From NCBI GenBank assembly GCA_041666745.1, contig JBAYGI010000003.1, positions 12,782-76,781 of the forward strand: a DNA stretch of 64,000 nt, given 5' to 3'. The DNA is from Candidatus Magasanikiibacteriota bacterium. Its GTDB lineage: Bacteria > Patescibacteriota > Patescibacteriia > Magasanikbacterales > GWA2-37-8. The notes beneath the pieces were generated by a model. That model was not told the DNA's origin and did no database searches. It saw only the letters and a program-made list of their open reading frames with translations. The position numbers and the translations under genes are program-made. This document shows, piece after piece, positions 4,670 through 43,023 of the stretch (its first letter is position 1; every line of letters starts with the position of its first letter).

Positions 4670-7464
4670 ACAACTTTAATTTCTCCCCCTTGACCTATTA
4701 CCACCGTATCTCTACGTTTCAGCTTACCAGATAACAACAACTCCGCCAACTGATTTTCTACTTTTTCTTGTAAAGCGCGACGCATCGGGCGGGCGCCAAA
4801 CTCCGGATCAAAGCCAACATCAGCCAAAAACTCCATCGCCGCCGGCTCTATTTTTAATTCAATACCCTTGGCTTCCAAATCTTTGGAAACACGCTTCAAC
4901 ATCAAGCCGGCAATCTTGATAATATCCTCGCGGTTCAAAGCTTTGAACAACACAATACCATCAAAACGATTTAAAAATTCAGGACGGAAATATTCTTTTA
5001 GTTCGCCGTGCAACAATTTTTCTTTGATAACATCCGATGAAACATTGGCGCGTAATTGCTCTTGAACATAAGACGTGCCGGCGTTGGAAGTGGCAATCAA
5101 AATAACATTGGTAAAATCTACCACCCGACCAACGCTATCAGACAAACGACCGTCATCCATCACCTGTAAAAATAAATTTAAAATATCTTTGTCGGCTTTT
5201 TCCATTTCATCAAGTAACAACAAAGAAAATGGATTGCGACGAATAGCTTCTGTCAACATTCCACTACCCTTTTCACCAGCCGTACCGATCAAACGAGAAA
5301 TACTGCTTTTATCTTGGTATTCACTCATATCCAAACGCACCATACGCTCTTCACCACCAAAATATACCTCCGCGATAGTCTTGGCTAATTCGGTTTTACC
5401 AACACCGGTCGGACCCAAAAACAAAAAGTTGGCAATCGGGCGCTTGGAGGATCGAATCTCCGCTCGCGCGCGACGCAGAGCATTGGCCACCAAATCTACC
5501 GCTTCGACTTGACCGATCACTCGCTTGTGCATTTCTTCTTCGAGGTGCATCAATTTGGTACTCTCATCAGCTGAAACAGTTGTGACCGGTACACCGGTTT
5601 TTTGCGCCACTACCGCGCCCACTTCTTCACCGGTAACAAAACTATTGATACCTTTTTTACTACGAGAAAAAGAAGCCGCTTCCGTCATCAGCTCTTGCGC
5701 GCTACCTGGTAAATATGACTCATGCAAAAATCGTGCCGCCAACTGAACCGACTTGGCTACCGCGTCATAAGAAAAAAATACATTTTGTTTATACTCGACT
5801 GTCCCCACTTTGGATTCCAAAACTTGAATTGCCTGATTTTCGTCCATTTCTTTTATTTCCACTTTGGCAAATAAATTTCCAAGTGGCGAACTGACAATAT
5901 GACGAGAATATTCATCCGGAGTAGTTGTGGCAAAAGTCAAAAACCGTCCACTACCAAGATATTCATTGAGAGTGCCGGCTACATCCAAACTTCCTGTTTC
6001 TCCACCAGCTGACACACCGGTTAATTCATGAATATTGTTGATAAATAAAATAACATTACCGGACCGACCAACATCTTGCATAATACCGATCAAACGCTCC
6101 ACCGCCCCAGCCGGAGTAGTCCCTGCCAATAATTTCGGCACACTCAAACGCACCAAACGTTTGTCTCGCAAACGAACCGGCACATCATCTTCTACCATTT
6201 TTTGCGCCAAACCTTCGATGATGCTGGTTTTTCCTACACCATTATCTCCAACTAAAATAACATTTTGTCCGCCCCCTTCTACAATTCTAAAAACTTCTTC
6301 GATTTCTTTTTCACGCGCGATACAACTATCCAGATGACCAAACTGCGCCGAGATTGTCAGGTCGTCACTAAAATTATTTAAAAACGGAGTCTGTACCGCT
6401 GTCATCGCTTTGTCCATACCGATTTTTGAACGTCCAACGGCGGCTTTGCGAAATTTCATATATTGACGATACAATCTCTCTCGTATTCTCGCCCACTCCA
6501 CCACGTTTAATAATTTTTGTTTGTCAACCGCTAAATCAAATAAAATTTCTTGTAATTTTTCTGACTGTTTAATAGTAGACAACAACAATTCAGTAACACT
6601 AACATATTCTTGATGGGCGCTATACGCTTCTTCGTAGGCATTGAATAATACTTGCTGAAATTCAGGTGAAATCAATGGCATTGTAAATTTATCACGTTTC
6701 TTGTCAAAAGATGGCTCAGCCCCCAAAACATTGGCCAAAGTTTTTTGCAATGAACTGGCCGGCAGAGCTAAACGAGTAAAAATATTGGAAATGCGATTGG
6801 AAGAAAGCAATGCATAAAAAAGGTGTTCAGGCGTAGCACTACCATGACCACTTTTATCTGCCACAAAATAAGCCTCGCCCAAAACCGACAACGCCTCATC
6901 GGTAAAAGTATCAGAAATATTTATTTTTTTCTTTGATTTTATTTTTTTGGCCTGTTGCCAATCCACTACATCGATTTTTTCTTCAGCACTTTCTTTATTT
7001 CCATACTGATTGTAATGATAACGTTCGACATTGTCTTTTTTGATTCTTTCGACTATCGCCCGATACCACAAATACAACAGGATTACCGCCCCAACACAAA
7101 ACAAAACACCTTCTGTGTCTTTTAAATTGTTTATCAACAAAGCGGGGTTAAAAACAATTCCTTTGCGTAAAGTAAAATAAATCCCCCACCCCCAAGCATT
7201 GAGCCATAAAAGTATGAGGGTAAAAAAACGAACTTTATTAAAAATACGATGTGCTTTGGCCAAATTCAAATGGTAACGAGTAAGTGGATAAAACCAAAAC
7301 AACCAATGCCCACGCACAAAATGACCGGCAGACATACCGCGACATTCTTTACATTTGGAAAAACCAACAAAACCGGTCGCTTTACAAACCGGACAAGATA
7401 ACAGAGATACGGATTCGGATTTCTCAAATAACATACTATTTTGAAAACGACATAATAAAACCAC
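4666..7464 (-). CDS. ClpB/ClpC-like double AAA+ ATPase with N-terminal zinc ribbon and transmembrane segment
   Basis: 932 aa; C-x2-C-x12-C-x2-C ribbon then hydrophobic helices; Clp_N-like repeat; D1 Walker A GDNGVGKTS and D2 GPTGVGKTELAK; no IGF/L ClpP loop recognised; no obvious M-domain. Confidence 0.8.
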   Translation of the reverse strand: MVLLCRFQNSMLFEKSESVSLLSCPVCKATGFVGFSKCKECRGMSAGHFVRGHWLFWFYPLTRYHLNLAKAHRIFNKVRFFTLILLWLNAWGWGIYFTLRKGIVFNPALLINNLKDTEGVLFCVGAVILLYLWYRAIVERIKKDNVERYHYNQYGNKESAEEKIDVVDWQQAKKIKSKKKINISDTFTDEALSVLGEAYFVADKSGHGSATPEHLFYALLSSNRISNIFTRLALPASSLQKTLANVLGAEPSFDKKRDKFTMPLISPEFQQVLFNAYEEAYSAHQEYVSVTELLLSTIKQSEKLQEILFDLAVDKQKLLNVVEWARIRERLYRQYMKFRKAAVGRSKIGMDKAMTAVQTPFLNNFSDDLTISAQFGHLDSCIAREKEIEEVFRIVEGGGQNVILVGDNGVGKTSIIEGLAQKMVEDDVPVRLRDKRLVRLSVPKLLAGTTPAGAVERLIGIMQDVGRSGNVILFINNIHELTGVSAGGETGSLDVAGTLNEYLGSGRFLTFATTTPDEYSRHIVSSPLGNLFAKVEIKEMDENQAIQVLESKVGTVEYKQNVFFSYDAVAKSVQLAARFLHESYLPGSAQELMTEAASFSRSKKGINSFVTGEEVGAVVAQKTGVPVTTVSADESTKLMHLEEEMHKRVIGQVEAVDLVANALRRARAEIRSSKRPIANFLFLGPTGVGKTELAKTIAEVYFGGEERMVRLDMSEYQDKSSISRLIGTAGEKGSGMLTEAIRRNPFSLLLLDEMEKADKDILNLFLQVMDDGRLSDSVGRVVDFTNVILIATSNAGTSYVQEQLRANVSSDVIKEKLLHGELKEYFRPEFLNRFDGIVLFKALNREDIIKIAGLMLKRVSKDLEAKGIELKIEPAAMEFLADVGFDPEFGARPMRRALQEKVENQLAELLLSGKLKRRDTVVIGQGGEIKVV

Positions 7465-9745: not shown

Positions 9746-9775
9746 TTGACTTTAAAACACAGAACAAGGTAAAAT
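9746..9775 (+). promoter_or_regulatory. Candidate sigma70-type promoter (TTGACT-N18-TAAAAT) upstream of high-GC island 1
   Basis: Hexamers read directly; imperfect inverted repeat agaacaag/cactgttct overlaps the -10; region is also divergent promoter space for mraZ. Confidence 0.4.
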
Positions 9776-9824
9776 CATTTCACTGTTCTTTCGGCGATTT
9801 TTCTCGCCAACGGAGGGACACTAG

Positions 9825-10055
9825 ATGACCAACGCGCGCTTCTTTGCTAGACCAATCGAAGACATGGCCATTCATGTCGTAGCAGTGGCTGCCACCACGG
9901 TGGTCGCTCCGATTGTCGCGGCCGGCGTCTTTAGCCTAGGCGTCCAGGACGCGGCGAAGGCGATCAGCGACAAAGCCACGAAGCTCTGCCGAAAGGCGAG
10001 CGGGATGGTCATTGACATGATCCCTGATCTGCCCTACGACGACTATTGTGATTAG
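9825..10055 (+). other. High-GC (~58%) island containing a 76-codon Ala/Val-rich ORF; either a foreign small membrane peptide gene or a structured non-coding RNA
   Basis: GC composition and codon usage (gcg/gcc/ggc) unlike flanking ~33% GC DNA; GGAGGG SD 8 nt upstream of ATG; hydrophobic segment IHVVAVAATTVVAPIVAAGVF. Confidence 0.3.
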
Positions 10056-10104
10056 GTGCGATGACGACGCATTGATTGGCGTCGCCGCGCCCTCCCGCCT
10101 ATAT

Positions 10105-10150
10105 GCGCGCCGGATCCTTCAAGGACCGGCGCGCTTCCATTTTTGGTTGA
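10105..10150 (+). terminator. Strong GC hairpin plus T-run (rho-independent terminator) closing island 1
   Basis: gcgcgccgg-a-tcctt-c-aagga-c-cggcgcgc followed by ttccatttttggttgattttt. Confidence 0.55.
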
Positions 10151-10305
10151 TTTTTGTTTGGGTAGTGTGTATAATAGACGGTAATCATAACCACCTTGTG
10201 AATAAAAATTATTGAAACTATTTTGTTTTGTTTTAGTCAAATTTTTAGCAAGTTGGTTTATCAGTAGTTAGGCGACATACGATTTTTATTAAAAAACTGG
10301 AAACA

Positions 10306-17782: not shown

Positions 17783-17789
17783 GTTTATA

Positions 17790-17890
17790 CGAGTAGCCCG
17801 CTTTATTGATTTGAGCGGGTTATGAGCCGAGGCTCATCCTTTCAGCCTCGCGGCTGAAAAAAGCGAAAACAATATAGCGGGCTACGATAA
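17790..17890. other. Structured intergenic element: 10-bp inverted repeat (gtagcccgct/agcgggctac) enclosing three hairpins
   Basis: Hairpins cccgct...agcggg, atgagc-cgag-gctcat, tcagcc-tcgc-ggctga; not followed by a T-run on either strand. Confidence 0.4.
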
Positions 17891-38481: not shown

Positions 38482-38757
38482 ATGTCACATAAAAAAGCAG
38501 GTGGTTCTACCCACCTAGGCCGAGATTCCGTCGCAAAACGCCTAGGAGTAAAAAAACATGACGGAGAGGTTATCAAAGCTGGCATGATCATTGTCAAGCA
38601 ACGTGGTACCAAAATCAACGCTGGCAAAAATGTTTTGCGCGGTGGTGACGATACTTTGTTTGCACATGTTGCCGGTAAAGTAAAATTTTCTAGCCACAAA
38701 CGCCGTCGTTTTGATGGAGCTTTGAAGAGCGCACAGTTTGTAAGTGTGGTAGAATAA
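38482..38757 (+). CDS. rpmA: 50S ribosomal protein bL27
   Basis: 92 aa from [16 protein letters not shown]; L27 signature; the longer upstream ORF frame is ignored. Confidence 0.85.
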
Positions 38758-38771
38758 AAAATAGCAACTAA

Positions 38772-38810
38772 AAAAACAATCACCAAATTTGGTGATTGTT
38801 TTTATTTTTA
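38772..38810. terminator. Rho-independent terminator of rpmA (bidirectional)
   Basis: aaaaaacaatcaccaaatttggtgattgtttttattttt. Confidence 0.65.
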
Positions 38811-38814
38811 AATC

Positions 38815-38870
38815 TGACTACTCGTTAGTCCTCAATGGTTTGAGAATTAACGAGTAGGTAGTCAGATGGT
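38815..38870. repeat. Long imperfect hairpin (16-bp stem with 3-nt bulge) at left edge of high-GC island 2
   Basis: atctgactactcgtta ... taacgagtaggtagtcagat. Confidence 0.6.
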
Positions 38871-38927
38871 AAGTCCAACCCCTTGCTCGCCTCTTGGGAG
38901 AGGGGTTAGTGTGGGCCGTTGAGCGAC

Positions 38928-39509
38928 CTACAGATTGTGGCGAGCGCGGAACTTCGTGACGGCCAGAGGGATGATCCGTTCGACGTGCGCCGGAACCGTG
39001 GGATCTGGCAGGTCATCGACTGGGAACCACCCGCGCGTGTCGCTGACTTCTGGAGCGCGTTCCAAGTCGGTGAGAAACACGAAGGAGATCCCCGCGCCTC
39101 TGCCTTCGTCGCCGATCTTGTACCAGCCGAAGCCGGCGTCGCCGACGCGAACGATACTGACAGGCACCCCATATTCCCTGGAGAGTCGGAATTTTGGAGT
39201 GTTCTCATCGTCGCTTGGACGAAGAGCGGTGCCTGGCACATGCCAGTAACCGGACCAGTCGGGATCGCTATCGTCCCGCTTGATCATGAAGACCTCGACC
39301 TTCCCCGAGTCATCATTGAATCGTAGCGACACGCTTTCCCAGTACACGTTCCACGAGGACCGTGCTACCGCCTTGTACAGTTCTGTCCCCAGTGGCCTTG
39401 TCGGATCAACGCGTCGGAGCACTTCTGCCACGAACTCCCTATATTCTGCGCTTTCTGGATCGAAGTCCTTGAGCACTTCAAGGACATCGTTCAAAATTTC
39501 AGTCATCAC
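38928..39509 (-). CDS. High-GC (~58%) foreign ORF encoding a degenerate Nudix-fold-like hypothetical protein
   Basis: 193 aa; WHVPGTALRPSDDENTPKFRLSREYGV resembles a Nudix box lacking the catalytic glutamates; AGGAGTGG SD; composition unlike host. Confidence 0.5.
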   Translation of the reverse strand: MMTEILNDVLEVLKDFDPESAEYREFVAEVLRRVDPTRPLGTELYKAVARSSWNVYWESVSLRFNDDSGKVEVFMIKRDDSDPDWSGYWHVPGTALRPSDDENTPKFRLSREYGVPVSIVRVGDAGFGWYKIGDEGRGAGISFVFLTDLERAPEVSDTRGWFPVDDLPDPTVPAHVERIIPLAVTKFRARHNL

Positions 39510-39569
39510 TCCACTCCTGACGGGATTTAACCCGAGTAGTTGCCGAACCTCTGTTGATCAAAAAAGCTT

Positions 39570-39605
39570 ATAACTATAACACAAAACAGACATTCTGTCA
39601 AATTG
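39570..39605 (-). promoter_or_regulatory. Near-consensus sigma70 promoter (TTGACA-N17-TATAGT) on minus strand driving the high-GC ORF
   Basis: Reverse complement of 39570-39605 reads aatTTGACAgaatgtctgttttgtgtTATAGTtat; lies immediately 3' of the giant surface protein gene. Confidence 0.45.
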
Positions 39606-42600
39606 GCCATTGAAACCAAAGTGTCGGATCCCAAAATGTTTTAACATTCATAAAATTTCTTGAGTCCATATTATTGAGATGTAGGATTGGTAACGGATCC
39701 ACACTACCCGACAAAATACCGGTATCCAAATTCATCAAATTGGTATTATCCAGTGTCAGCTCCCCACTAAATATTTTTATTCCATTGGTGTTGGCCACAT
39801 TTGGTTTTGATCCGATATAACCAATCGAACTATTGTTTATTACTACAGTTGAATTATTTATTTCCAAAGTATTTCCAGACGGTTTACTATCCAACAACTG
39901 ACAATTTTGCATATCCAGTTTGCCGTTTTTTACTGTCACCATCCCCTGATAGGTATCGTTCCAAATCGTACCACGCCCGCCGGAGATGTTGGCGTTTTTA
40001 AAACCACCTTTACCACCATCAAAAATAATTCTACCCCAATAATTAATTATTAATGGTTGAATCGCCGAGATATTTATTGGATCATTTTCTGTTCCATTTA
40101 AATTTAAAATACCTTTTACCAAAATATTTGAATACTCCGGCATTTTAATATTGGTTCCGGCGGAGACATTTAGAGTTATGTTTGGTTCAACGGTGATATT
40201 TTGCCAAGTCATCGGAATATCTTTTTCAACAGTGAGATCAGTAGAAATCACCGCTTGGTCTATAGCGACATTATTTGCAATATTATTACTAAAATTTATT
40301 TGTGACATTTTTGGCCAAATATTTTTTACATAAACCGGACCATTGATATTTGTAAAATTATTTAAGCCAATATTTTCCAATTCCAAACTGCCGTCATAAT
40401 TTTCTATTGCCAACACACCATTTTTAAAATCCGTATTTTTAACAGTCGAAGTTGTTTTGGATAAATAAATATTTGTGTCCCCGCTATCACTGAAAATAGA
40501 ATTATTAATATTTAATCCCGCACTGACAGCCCGCACTGCTTGAGAAACAAATGGGTCATAAGTATTGGCACCCGGAGCTTTGAAAGCCTTACCGGCATAG
40601 CGCATATCCAAACCGGACAAATTGGCGGTTGAACTGGCATACAACAATAGCCCCTGCCAATCTTTGGCCAAAGCACTTCCCGATCGAGTACCGATAATAG
40701 TTTTGTACCCTTCCGATTCAAAATTTACATCTCTGCCGGATGTCATAATCACTCGACTGTCGCTGGTGCCATTTATATTCAAATTCCCTTTGATATCAAT
40801 TTTGGAATCCGCATAATAAGTTTTTATTACCACTCCCGAATCAATGTTGAAAGTTTTACCAACCGGAATTTCATAATAAGTTAAAATATACGGATAAATA
40901 CTTTTTTTCAAAGTGCGATCGGTTTCAACCTGACGACTCTTGAGAACTATCGATCCAAAATTTGATTGCTTTGGTGAACCGTTGAGTGGAAGATCATCAC
41001 CACCGCCATCTACTTTGCCTGTGAATCTCGGACCTTGGTTTGTTTGCCAATTGGTTGAATTATTTCCGGGTAAACGTGAATTTATTTTTTCCATCGAAGA
41101 ATAAGTAACGTCGGAACCGGCAAACCAAGTACTACTACAATCCACTTCATCCACGAGCTGATTGTTTCCGTCCAACAAACGCAGGCGCTCACCACTATTT
41201 TTTAATGCACCGGAATAAATAATGTCTGCCGGAATTTCATTGACTGTGCGATCGTCGGTGCGTTCAAATAAATAATAACCATTTTTGGGAATGATACGAT
41301 TGACGATTTTTCCAATACTAATTTCTTTATCTCCGATCATAAGTTTCCACCACTTGGAGGTGTTGGTGGCGGAAAATAAATTTATATCTTGATCGGTGTT
41401 GTTGTATAACTCGATAAACTCATCTTGGTCGGTGACCGAGGACGTGCCTGCCCAGGCGATTTCGTTTATTACTACGTCGGGGGCGGGTGGAACTGGATCT
41501 GGGATTTCGGGAGTGGATGTGGGGGTGGTGGAGGTTGGGGTGGTGGAGGTTGGGATTGTGGAAGTTGGGGTTGTATCTGGGATGGTTGAGGTGGGAATTT
41601 CGATAGGTGTGGTTGTGGGGGTGATTGGGGTGGTGGTGGGTATTTCTATGGTGGTAGTTGGAATGTCGATTGTGGAGGTGGGAGTTTCGATTGTGGAAGT
41701 AGCAACAGGTACGGTTGTTGTAGGAACAGGTGTTTGAATAACTACGACTGGATCAGCAACTGGGATTATGGTCGGATTGGATCCGCCACCGCCTCCACCT
41801 CCACCGGTGGAATGTTCTGGTGGTTGAATTGGAGTTGGATTATTTATTGGTGGGTTTGGTGTTGGTTGGGGTGGTGATATGACTGGTTGTGTAGTTGGAG
41901 GTGTGTTTGGTGCTGGATTTTGGTTTACTGGAGGTGTATTGTTTGGGGTATTGTCGGACACGGGATTGTTGGTATTTTCTCCGGATGTAATTTGATCATT
42001 TGGTGTTTGAGAATTGGCAGAATCATAAATATTTTCCGCTACTGAAATTATGTCTCCAACTCCAGTGTCTATCAAGCCACCTAAGCCAATTCTAAAAAAT
42101 GGCAGTTTTTCGGTTTCATTTTTTTGTACATCGGAGAGGAATAATTTTATGGTGTTGGCGCTGTAACTGACGGCTTTGGGGAGGAGGTGGGAGGCGTAGT
42201 CTTGGAGGATCACACTGTTGTTTACCATGTTTTTATCTTCTTTCCAATCAGTACCACCTATCAAATGACTTTTTATTAAATTACTATCACTATCTTTAGT
42301 CGAAGCAACATATAGATCAACTGCATTATTAAAATTATACGGATCCAATTTAGAAATTTTATGTACACTATACTTACTATTTTCAATCGTCTTGTCACTA
42401 TAAAAATTACTATTTGAATATTTAGCCGCATCATTAAAAATATCTTCTAGACTATTTTTATCAGCTACCTCACTTTTAATATTTTTACTTATTGTACTCC
42501 AATTATTTTTTACATAACTTTCATACGAGTCCGGTGGAATAGCATGAATACTGTCACGTGTATGAGCTGGCACCAACATATCAGATACCAGGTGAATATT

Positions 42601-43023
42601 GTGACCTAATTCTTTAAAAGCCAACTCTTTGTTGCCTTTACGAAAATCATTTATTGCTCTTTGCCAACTATTATCACCCAACGAAAAAGCGGTTTGTTTG
42701 TCATAATCTTTTGCCCAAACTTTGGCGGAATCATTTTGTTTTCCAAAAAATAATCCGCGATTGTATATCGGATCATAAAAATGATTTAACCATCTGGTCG
42801 GTTGATCCTCCTCTACTGTGCCGGTTTTGATCCAACCAAGTTGTTCAACTGAAATTTTTTGACTGTTGTTTTGATTGTATTGTTTCACGGCCAAATCGGC
42901 AATTCCGGGATGGGCAACGTTGGAATCATAACAAAAAACTTGGCGCACGAACGCCAAGTTTAAAAAAATAACAAAAATAATAAAAACAAATAATTGAAAA
43001 CACTTATCCCCTCCCTTTTTCAT
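39598..43023 (-). CDS. Giant secreted multidomain protein: zinc-dependent phospholipase C / P1-nuclease-like domain, Pro/Thr-rich linker, Gly9 run, lamin-tail domain, right-handed beta-helix repeats
   Basis: 1141 aa; signal peptide; HFYDP and HNIHLVSDMLVPAH (zinc PLC/S1-P1 motifs); VVINEIAWAGTS...DEFIELYN (LTD); NxxG-type beta-helix repeats C-terminally. Confidence 0.75.
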   Translation of the reverse strand: MKKGGDKCFQLFVFIIFVIFLNLAFVRQVFCYDSNVAHPGIADLAVKQYNQNNSQKISVEQLGWIKTGTVEEDQPTRWLNHFYDPIYNRGLFFGKQNDSAKVWAKDYDKQTAFSLGDNSWQRAINDFRKGNKELAFKELGHNIHLVSDMLVPAHTRDSIHAIPPDSYESYVKNNWSTISKNIKSEVADKNSLEDIFNDAAKYSNSNFYSDKTIENSKYSVHKISKLDPYNFNNAVDLYVASTKDSDSNLIKSHLIGGTDWKEDKNMVNNSVILQDYASHLLPKAVSYSANTIKLFLSDVQKNETEKLPFFRIGLGGLIDTGVGDIISVAENIYDSANSQTPNDQITSGENTNNPVSDNTPNNTPPVNQNPAPNTPPTTQPVISPPQPTPNPPINNPTPIQPPEHSTGGGGGGGGSNPTIIPVADPVVVIQTPVPTTTVPVATSTIETPTSTIDIPTTTIEIPTTTPITPTTTPIEIPTSTIPDTTPTSTIPTSTTPTSTTPTSTPEIPDPVPPAPDVVINEIAWAGTSSVTDQDEFIELYNNTDQDINLFSATNTSKWWKLMIGDKEISIGKIVNRIIPKNGYYLFERTDDRTVNEIPADIIYSGALKNSGERLRLLDGNNQLVDEVDCSSTWFAGSDVTYSSMEKINSRLPGNNSTNWQTNQGPRFTGKVDGGGDDLPLNGSPKQSNFGSIVLKSRQVETDRTLKKSIYPYILTYYEIPVGKTFNIDSGVVIKTYYADSKIDIKGNLNINGTSDSRVIMTSGRDVNFESEGYKTIIGTRSGSALAKDWQGLLLYASSTANLSGLDMRYAGKAFKAPGANTYDPFVSQAVRAVSAGLNINNSIFSDSGDTNIYLSKTTSTVKNTDFKNGVLAIENYDGSLELENIGLNNFTNINGPVYVKNIWPKMSQINFSNNIANNVAIDQAVISTDLTVEKDIPMTWQNITVEPNITLNVSAGTNIKMPEYSNILVKGILNLNGTENDPINISAIQPLIINYWGRIIFDGGKGGFKNANISGGRGTIWNDTYQGMVTVKNGKLDMQNCQLLDSKPSGNTLEINNSTVVINNSSIGYIGSKPNVANTNGIKIFSGELTLDNTNLMNLDTGILSGSVDPLPILHLNNMDSRNFMNVKTFWDPTLWFQWPI
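41400..41960. repeat. Coding low-complexity tandem repeats (Pro/Thr/Ile-rich linker)
   Basis: Repeated gtggaggttgggg-type units on the + strand (complement encodes PTTT/IPTST repeats). Confidence 0.7.

Follow-up and report, generated by a model that had tools for sequence, protein, structure and literature searches.

An accessory GC-rich unit encoding a predicted Nudix-fold protein in a low-GC Candidatus Magasanikbacteria genome

How does a single gene come to be far richer in G and C than the genome around it, and what keeps it so? The question is raised by a 64,000-nt stretch of Candidatus Magasanikbacteria (Patescibacteria) DNA, here called the window, in which 200-bp intervals at ~38800–39550 reach 0.63 GC versus 0.30–0.45 on both sides. 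The island encodes a Nudix-like protein whose coding sequence (CDS) is 57.7% GC (0.63, 0.43 and 0.67 at the first, second and third codon positions; GC1, GC2 and GC3), and the remaining window is 36.4% GC. A first-pass annotation, made from the sequence alone, had proposed a captured foreign expression unit. The unit is indeed self-contained and is absent as a block from a related contig, but the foreign high-GC origin was not borne out. The explanation that we favour, with slightly more confidence than doubt, is an accessory one-gene unit from a Patescibacteria-restricted Nudix-fold family, with an exchangeable slot in glycan clusters, a predicted ligand of the nucleoside-diphosphate-sugar type and a family-intrinsic GC content.

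Under this explanation, the family gene would form an exchangeable single-gene slot in nucleotide-sugar and envelope-glycan clusters, bracketed by its own promoter and terminators, with alleles that may be swapped among Patescibacteria lineages or may evolve much faster than their neighbours. In the window, one such unit lies between rpmA and a surface-protein gene, where locus L111 has an empty site (L-numbers denote loci of relatives). We infer that the high GC is a family-intrinsic state, kept up inside Patescibacteria by a gene-specific force, and no donor signature; candidate forces would be GC-biased repair linked to frequent recombinational exchange, or selection for an mRNA that is long-lived, GC-rich and strongly folded.

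A one-gene unit and its empty site

The Nudix unit is an intact one-gene transcription unit with its own promoter, ribosome-binding site and GC-rich CDS, two hairpins in the 3′ untranslated region (UTR), and a terminator shared with rpmA. Its parts and direct neighbours are as follows.

39573..39601, minus strand: sigma-70-type promoter TTGACA-N17-(TG)TATAGT, 11/12 matches, with TG extension
39507..39566, minus strand: AT-rich 5′ UTR of ~60 nt, from sequence and fold (z = +0.97)
38928..39506, minus strand: Nudix-fold CDS, 192 aa from ATG, stop TAG at 38928–38930
38877..38907, minus strand: first 3′ UTR hairpin, holding the conserved AAGAGGCGAGCAAGGGG; kept in L004, two changes in L019
38812..38867, minus strand: long hairpin, the second in the 3′ UTR, with a bulge of 4 nt, from fold and covariance model R1
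38772..38803, both directions: rpmA terminator, a perfect 16+16 palindrome between A and T runs
38482..38757, plus strand: rpmA (ribosomal protein L27; Pfam Ribosomal_L27), convergent neighbour
39598..43023, minus strand: 1141-aa surface protein with a lamin-tail domain (LTD) and a Pro/Thr-rich linker, upstream neighbour

The open reading frame (ORF) spans 38928..39509 on the minus strand and encodes 193 aa if translation starts at a GTG one codon 5′ of the ATG at 39506. The ribosome-binding site AGGAG (39518–39514) stands 7 nt ahead of the ATG, and the promoter −35 hexamer overlaps the TGA stop (39600–39598) of the LTD surface-protein gene. Promoter and 5′ UTR are AT-rich and host-like, the start codon marks the onset of the GC shift, and the 5′ UTR has no significant fold of its own. 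The 3′ UTR is highly structured (z = −7.7). Since the rpmA terminator is usable bidirectionally, the Nudix transcript probably ends there too. The first-pass annotation had already described the minus-strand ORF of ~58% GC, the near-consensus promoter with its ribosome-binding site, and the position after the rpmA terminator beside a long hairpin; all of these hold, with the hairpin at 38812–38867 and not at 38815–38870. A 99%-identical protein is annotated as hypothetical protein WCT11_02105 in an NCBI metagenome-assembled genome (MAG) of the Candidatus Magasanikbacteria lineage.

L111, a related Magasanikbacteria contig whose surface protein is 51% identical, has the same synteny and no Nudix gene: the surface-protein stop is followed by a 48-bp spacer with a terminator, then by rpmA, a small membrane protein, FtsW and an epimerase. 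This is the empty site, rpmA next to the surface-protein gene, that the first-pass annotation had suggested looking for, and a second relative likewise lacks the gene. The synteny of L111 implies that the block 38812–39597 (~786 bp) is present or absent as a whole and is accessory here. Insertion at the rpmA site is more parsimonious, because the family elsewhere lives in glycan clusters.

The unit resembles a horizontally acquired GC-atypical islet in its sharp compositional step, its presence or absence with an empty site and its own promoter. Unlike such an islet, it has no integrase, transposase, tRNA target or real direct repeats, and its composition is common to the whole family in low-GC hosts, with no match to a known donor. 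Neither a tRNA gene nor an Rfam family that reaches its gathering threshold was found in the island or in the whole 64-kb window. The heptamer CGAGTAG, which had been read as a flanking pair reminiscent of a target-site duplication, occurs four times in the window versus 1.5 expected, a count reached by 5 of 100 shuffles; two of the four copies are both arms of one hairpin, and the right-hand copy lies at 39533, not 39527. A transposon with target-site duplication was thus rejected: the heptamer is a chance one, the ends carry no terminal inverted repeats, and there is no transposase ORF. An integron gene cassette shares with the unit a single ORF, an imperfect hairpin with extra-helical bases at the block edge and a cassette-like fixed slot. 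However, cassettes consist of a promoterless ORF and attC (R″-L″...L′-R′, with RYYYAAC/GTTRRRY outermost), whereas the window unit has its own 11/12 promoter; its hairpin lacks R″/R′ core sites and carries GTTA/TAAC at the loop side, a misfit to GTTRRRY; and no integrase, recombinase or array was found in the loci examined, with the hairpin confined to three lineages. The cassette/attC reading was rejected on promoter, hairpin geometry and the lack of a recombinase in those loci.

The family, its GC contrast and its slot

A word-indexed search returned 16 proteins, namely a near-identical copy of the window protein and 15 relatives at 53–61% identity. An exhaustive search of a 1.84-billion representative library recovered 433 relatives (118 below 1e-10), and a profile search of a 5.8-billion-protein set returned only members known already. 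The organism names on these relatives are Magasanikbacteria, Kerfeldbacteria, Staskawiczbacteria, Parcubacteria, Saccharibacteria and 'Patescibacteria group', with two doubtful exceptions, and a scan of 185,579 species genomes likewise found only Patescibacteria-named contigs and two doubtful MAG labels. No homologue in a high-GC context was found among GTDB species genomes, JGI metagenomes, IMG/VR, plasmids and phages. Judged by sequence, the Nudix-fold family is restricted to Patescibacteria on current data. The first-pass annotation had looked to Actinobacteria or other high-GC taxa for the source; no high-GC homologue was found, and the relatives lie in contigs of 30–54% GC, mostly as GC islands. 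Homologues of matching high GC, which it would have taken as a sign against capture if native and syntenic in relatives, are widespread in relatives, but not at the rpmA site. A defence, phage or plasmid origin was rejected, with no member in the PADLOC, PHROG, IMG/VR, phage and plasmid collections. The two exceptions are L017 (CAYIOJ010000001.1), labelled Gammaproteobacteria, and L022 (DATION010000004.1), labelled Candidatus Udaeobacter; both contigs are 38–40% GC, with promoter, leader and terminator types that match those of Patescibacteria-labelled loci, and the labels are probably binning or classification errors.

The family gene is a GC island at almost all loci. At eight distinct loci (L001, L003, L004, L008, L011, L012, L014 and the window), the genes are 55–64% GC in contigs of 36–43%, with GC3 of 0.61–0.91. 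The gene exceeds its flanks by +0.11 to +0.26 at 15 of 17 loci from GTDB species genomes and by a median of +0.14 at 60 metagenome loci (above +0.10 at 44 of the 60; flanks 0.30–0.54), and the excess persists at 28–40% protein identity to the window protein. Across 687 kb of Patescibacteria DNA, windows 15 points over their locus mean are almost exclusively the family gene. GC1 is uniformly high (0.47–0.72 at the metagenome loci), and GC3, which correlates with it (rho = 0.65), is raised most, with a median of 0.56 versus roughly 0.35 in host genes and a full range of 0.13–0.91. Near-identical strain pairs have zero single-nucleotide polymorphisms in the gene, and singletons among six sequences give a 9:1 count, but their G/C-versus-A/T states are nearly binomial and leave the polarisation uninformative. 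Apparent flank differences between L014 and L015 proved to be a contig-end artefact.

The family gene prefers the codons CGC/CGG/AGG, CTG/CTC and GGC/GGG. GC3 is 0.35 in the host rpmA and 0.31 in rplU, or 0.31–0.37 with lepA included; G is almost absent from the 4-fold sites of rpmA and rplU (0.02 in rpmA, a host-like usage), and both prefer A/T-ending codons. Translational codon bias was rejected as a cause of the GC excess, since rpmA, rplU and lepA lack such a bias. Amino-acid content alone was likewise rejected, since GC3 is raised most and co-varies with GC1, as were overlapping genes or dual coding, with no alternative frame open beyond synonymous shuffles in 22 genes. In three loci, a low-GC (0.39–0.42), Lys-rich paralogue (hhalign 98.6%) stands immediately upstream of the GC-rich copy:

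L004 5298–5837: low-GC paralogue
L003 5337–5831: low-GC paralogue
L012 5384–5845: low-GC paralogue

Between these loci, the paralogue is 70–82% conserved and the GC-rich copy 42–68%. That the paralogue is coded at host GC implies that the Nudix fold needs no GC-rich coding.

The usual context of the family is a nucleotide-sugar or envelope-glycan cluster, with neighbours that include a TPP enzyme, NeuB, HAD, GT2, GtrA, DegT, MptA-type transferases, epimerases, methyltransferases and radical-SAM enzymes. The window neighbourhood is likewise rich in RmlD, FdtA, dehydratase/epimerase, UDP-glucose dehydrogenase, GT1, GT2 and DegT genes. At 23 loci, the gene stands as a monocistronic unit insulated from its surroundings, even inside co-directional, operon-like glycan clusters, laid out as a near-consensus promoter, a short leader, AGGAGG, a GC-rich CDS and GC-rich terminator hairpins. 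The leader in most related loci opens with a short stem-loop, unlike the 5′ UTR of the window, and the family promoter is often CCTTGACTTTTTTG, a sequence that the terminator of the preceding gene uses as its 3′ arm and T-run. This terminator–promoter overlap, AAAAAGTCAGG-N4-6-CCTTGACTTTTTTG, recurs in L004 (~5890–5925), L008, L011, L022, L014 and L024; the −35 box TTGACT of the family gene is there drawn from the 3′ arm and T-run of the preceding terminator hairpin. Another conserved kind of terminator, CTCCGCCATCAAGTCCAACGCGGACAAGATGGCGGGGCG-T-run with the loop CAAGUCCAA, stands 3′ of the gene in L014, L022, L024 and L020, and in L024 this type also lies upstream of it; a third type, CTCCGTCC...GGACGGAG, is found in L001, L003, L012 and L017.

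At these fixed slots, the gene diverges more than its surroundings. Between L008 and L011, the flanks are 67–79% identical (MptA 52%) and the family gene 38%; between L003 or L004 and L012, the flanks are mostly 67–83% identical, with GtrA at 44–45% and DegT at 61% in L003 versus L012 as exceptions, and the gene 42–45%. Synonymous sites of the L008 and L011 genes are saturated (observed identity 0.32, expected 0.34), and both alleles keep GC3 of 0.76–0.79 in neighbourhoods of 33–40% GC. Between L003 and L004, identity at 4-fold sites is 0.62 in the gene (expected 0.34) versus 0.29–0.50 in the flanks. In a neighbour-joining tree, each of the three Magasanikbacteria copies falls in a different subclade, and the Saccharibacteria and Parcubacteria sequences are interleaved. 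Together, the slot divergence, the likeness at 4-fold sites and the mixed tree suggest that Patescibacteria exchange the gene horizontally among themselves or replace its alleles, and that the protein also evolves fast.

The long hairpin of the window, AUCUGACU-ACCU-ACUCGUUA ... UAACGAGU-AGUCAGAU, sits right at one end of the block that L111 lacks. It is part of a conserved element, AAGAGGCGAGCAAGGGG-N10-20-AUCWGRCUACCUACUCGUUA-loop-UAACGAGURGYCWGAU, common to the window, L004 (56% protein identity) and L019 (35%). Compensatory changes (U-A/A-U, A-U/G-C) occur in its outer stem, its 4-nt bulge is conserved, and the element is better conserved than the CDS. Covariance model R1 scores 96.9 bits in the window, 95.8 in L019 and 88.1 in L004, with no further match in 589 kb; in these three lineages, the element is always directly 3′ of the family gene. 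It could serve to stabilise the mRNA 3′ end, or as a site of processing, binding or recombination. Reading the hairpin as an IS200-type or REP element was rejected, given a misfit in motif geometry and one copy per locus in three lineages, and matches of a hairpin 16-mer in three viral contigs are chance ones that lack the partner arm.

A degenerate Nudix box

The window protein matches Pfam NUDIX (PF00293) at 22.0 bits, barely above the cut-off of 21.1. Its structure model is confident and has the alpha/beta/alpha Nudix fold, with an N-terminal three-helix extension (residues 2–50), the Nudix core and a single C-terminal helix (172–189). By contrast, the catalytic Nudix box G-x5-E-x7-R-E-U-x-E-E-x-G-U, with its metal-binding glutamates, is lacking: the window box reads T93-x5-D99-x7-R107-L108-S-R110-E111-Y-G113-V, with T93 for G, D99 for E, L108 for E and R110 for E, so that two of the three REUXEE glutamates are gone. 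The degenerate box seen in the first-pass annotation is therefore real, and profile and structure comparison bear out the fold. The pattern R-L...E-[FY]-G runs through the family in a 60-sequence alignment, the box being reduced to R-L-x2(3)-E-[FY]-G, and 47 residues are invariant in 16 aligned family proteins. No PADLOC or PHROG match was found for the protein.

The family profile finds NrtR-like 2FML as its best match (E = 1e-10) and GDP-mannose mannosyl hydrolase (GDPMH) at 1e-4. Alignment by hhalign to E. coli GDPMH (sequence confirmed against 1RYA) reaches 91% probability, with R-L and a single E in common, and pairs GYWFVPGG...FERLTMAELGL with GYWHVPGT...FRLS-REYGV; the modified, GDPMH-type box with R-L and a single Glu ligand is thus present. 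GDPMH releases GDP and sugar from GDP-mannose or GDP-glucose, with His124 and Arg/Tyr residues placed to attack sugar C1. GDPMH (Gmm/WcaH/NudD; 1RYA, 2GT2, 2I8T) is also similar in size, shares the motif G-Y-W-x-V-P-G ... R-L ... E-x-G, in which Leu replaces the Glu after Arg and one Glu is kept, and is encoded within nucleotide-sugar and polysaccharide clusters. Unlike GDPMH, to which identity is ~20%, the window protein has the N-terminal three-helix extension, an R-to-G spacing one residue shorter in its subfamily and no identifiable equivalent of the catalytic His124; in that loosely aligned C-terminal region, the wider family has a conserved His before W160 ('DDRH-W') and the window subfamily Arg158. 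The Nudix sensors NrtR, AraR and NadQ (3GZ5, 3GZ8, 2FML, 5BS6) give the best profile and structure matches, and their degenerate boxes serve in ligand sensing (ADP-ribose, arabinose) rather than catalysis; they differ in their C-terminal winged-helix DNA-binding domain. No winged helix appears in the model of the window protein, whose profile and structure matches span the Nudix domain only, and an NrtR-type regulator was rejected because the 192-aa protein lacks this domain.

By sequence comparison, the family box is more similar to that of GDPMH and the non-catalytic NrtR/AraR sensors than to MutT-type pyrophosphatases, and the protein probably represents a new, non-canonical branch of the Nudix superfamily. 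Its box, fold neighbours and genomic context suggest that the protein may bind a ligand of the nucleoside-diphosphate-sugar or ADP-ribose kind, or hydrolyse it at the sugar carbon, and in either case would tune the supply of glycan precursors.

Possible sources of the GC excess

A sustaining force is favoured over a fading donor signature because no reservoir is visible and saturated alleles keep GC3 at ~0.77 in related low-GC hosts. The transcript is nearly twice as stable per nucleotide as those of host genes. We favour mRNA selection or GC-biased repair as that force, and the data do not separate the two. Several findings weigh against the favoured explanation. The GC3 range, the patchiness, the allele replacement and the low synonymous divergence would equally fit GC-rich import and amelioration; almost no GC excess is seen at 7 of 60 metagenome loci, so the GC-raising force is not universal; and the CDS folds only modestly more stably than synonymous shuffles (mean z = −1.5 over 15 genes, several near 0), which falls short of demonstrating selection for a particular RNA structure. 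Peptide-pattern scans may miss divergent members resident in high-GC genomes, and insertion versus loss at the rpmA site is not polarisable from a single syntenic relative. The nearest subfamily has also replaced residues of the wider family (E99 to D; the His of 'DDRH-W' to Arg158), which makes even GDPMH-like chemistry uncertain. A more sweeping form of the favoured explanation, in which a gene-specific force holds the family 10–25 GC points over every host, in an insulated, exchangeable, fast-evolving slot with a bulged 3′ hairpin in three lineages, falls somewhat short of an even chance in our estimate. If true, it would mean a persistent compositional disequilibrium beyond recent transfer, codon optimisation and amino-acid content.

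The most serious rival is repeated recent import from an unsampled GC-rich reservoir, such as some Patescibacteria lineage of high GC, one of their plasmids or viruses, or the organisms that host them, followed by amelioration, so that the excess would be a donor signature fading at the scale of the family. Import would account for the empty site in L111, the different alleles at one slot, the discordance of the gene tree with host labels, the lower synonymous divergence of L003 and L004 relative to their flanks, a GC3 range (0.13–0.91) that co-varies with GC1 like an amelioration series, and the few unrelated GC-rich genes also found in these glycan loci. Yet no member stands in a high-GC context, and at the top flank GC of 0.54 the gene is still +0.11; none occurs in IMG/VR, phages or plasmids, and the species genomes yield only Patescibacteria-named contigs apart from the two doubtful labels. 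The saturated L008 and L011 alleles both hold their GC3 in low-GC neighbourhoods, and promoters, leaders and terminators are host-like. On balance, we regard import as unlikely, but as a contender to be taken seriously. A by-product of selection on the amino-acid composition (G, A, R, P, V, D, E, as residues that are cheap or needed for the structure), or of codon optimisation under high expression, is very improbable. The uniformly high GC1, a protein with many R, P, V, D, E and W residues but few K, N and I, and the strong promoter and ribosome-binding site would suit it, and there is a precedent in gene transfer agent genes, which keep their GC above that of their own genome without recent transfer and in which selection on amino-acid cost raises GC1 and GC2 but not GC3 (Kogay et al. 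2020, PMC7360931). Unlike in that precedent, GC3 is raised too, and most of all, in the family gene; ribosomal-protein genes of the same genome prefer A/T-ending codons; and a paralogue of the same fold is coded at host GC, which together with GC3 largely refutes this rival.

That a high-GC island might be RNA first and protein second also deserves weighing, since in AT-rich genomes GC-rich islands are often structured RNAs. The locus would then be primarily a structured RNA or dual-coding, with the ORF incidental or sharing its DNA with an antisense or alternate-frame gene. The fold of the whole transcript (z = −4.1), that of the 3′ UTR and the presence of long antisense ORFs speak for it; the 47 invariant residues over 16 sequences, the confident Nudix model, the lack of alternative frames open beyond synonymous shuffles in 22 genes, the lack of an Rfam family at threshold and the concentration of the structure signal in the 3′ UTR speak against it, and we rate it a shade more improbable again than the compositional by-product. 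An assembly chimera, in which a fragment of a high-GC organism was joined into a low-GC contig, would explain a sharp compositional step in a metagenome-assembled genome. However, the junctions are base-for-base identical in a separate ENA MEGAHIT contig (36928–41506) and a Logan contig (38774–41506), the promoter −35 overlaps the neighbour's stop codon, and islands of like kind occur in like context at >70 loci from many studies, including one relative's locus on seven contigs from several Hainich groundwater samples, four of which were compared and are identical over gene and flanks. A chimera is effectively refuted, and we give it a negligible chance.

Other GC-rich genes (0.53–0.61) stand near the family gene in four loci of 0.39–0.44 GC, which suggests that the family gene is not the only one of atypical composition in the glycan loci of these bacteria:

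L030 5650–6636: 328-aa protein, no Pfam match
L032 6595–7368: 257-aa Nudix protein
L017 2744–3439: 231-aa protein
L104 2765–3688: 307-aa protein

The window itself has a second GC islet at 9751–10200, island 1 of the first-pass annotation, which reaches 0.61 GC. It lies divergently upstream of mraZ and is laid out like the Nudix unit: TTGACT-N17-TAAAAT, a leader stem-loop (GGCGA...TCGCC), GGAGGG, an ORF and a GC-rich terminator. Its ORF is

9825–10055, plus strand: 76-aa protein with a hydrophobic core

and has no Pfam, PADLOC, PHROG or Rfam match; its 90%-identity cluster contains only the 76-aa sequence and a 63-aa version annotated in an NCBI MAG. The intergenic stretch 17785–17880 carries two GC-rich hairpins, GCCCGC...GCGGGC and GAGCCGAGGCTC / CAGCCTCGCGGCTG, between an ORF for a 538-aa membrane protein and one for a 598-aa protein, probably LepA, whose N terminus has a translational-GTPase motif; the stretch holds one chance copy of CGAGTAG and has no Rfam match. 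At 41351–41825, GC rises to 0.57 with a strong GC skew, where the repetitive Pro/Thr-rich linker of the surface protein is encoded; this feature is compositional and no island. From ~24 kb to its end, the window consists almost entirely of sugar-nucleotide and glycosyltransferase genes, and the last 12 kb fall to 24–31% GC.

As far as the literature searched goes, the family-wide GC disequilibrium and the slot-like behaviour are without description. Atypical GC is routinely taken as the mark of a recent foreign arrival; here dozens of low-GC genomes carry a family that stays atypical as a whole, and no donor is in sight. Either these ultra-small bacteria draw on a GC-rich gene pool that has escaped sampling, or their genome-wide mutational bias yields to a force specific to the gene. 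Both answers bear on gene exchange in Patescibacteria and on the remodelling of their surface glycans, the interface with hosts and phages, and the family is a small natural system in which GC-biased conversion can be set against mRNA-level selection in bacteria.

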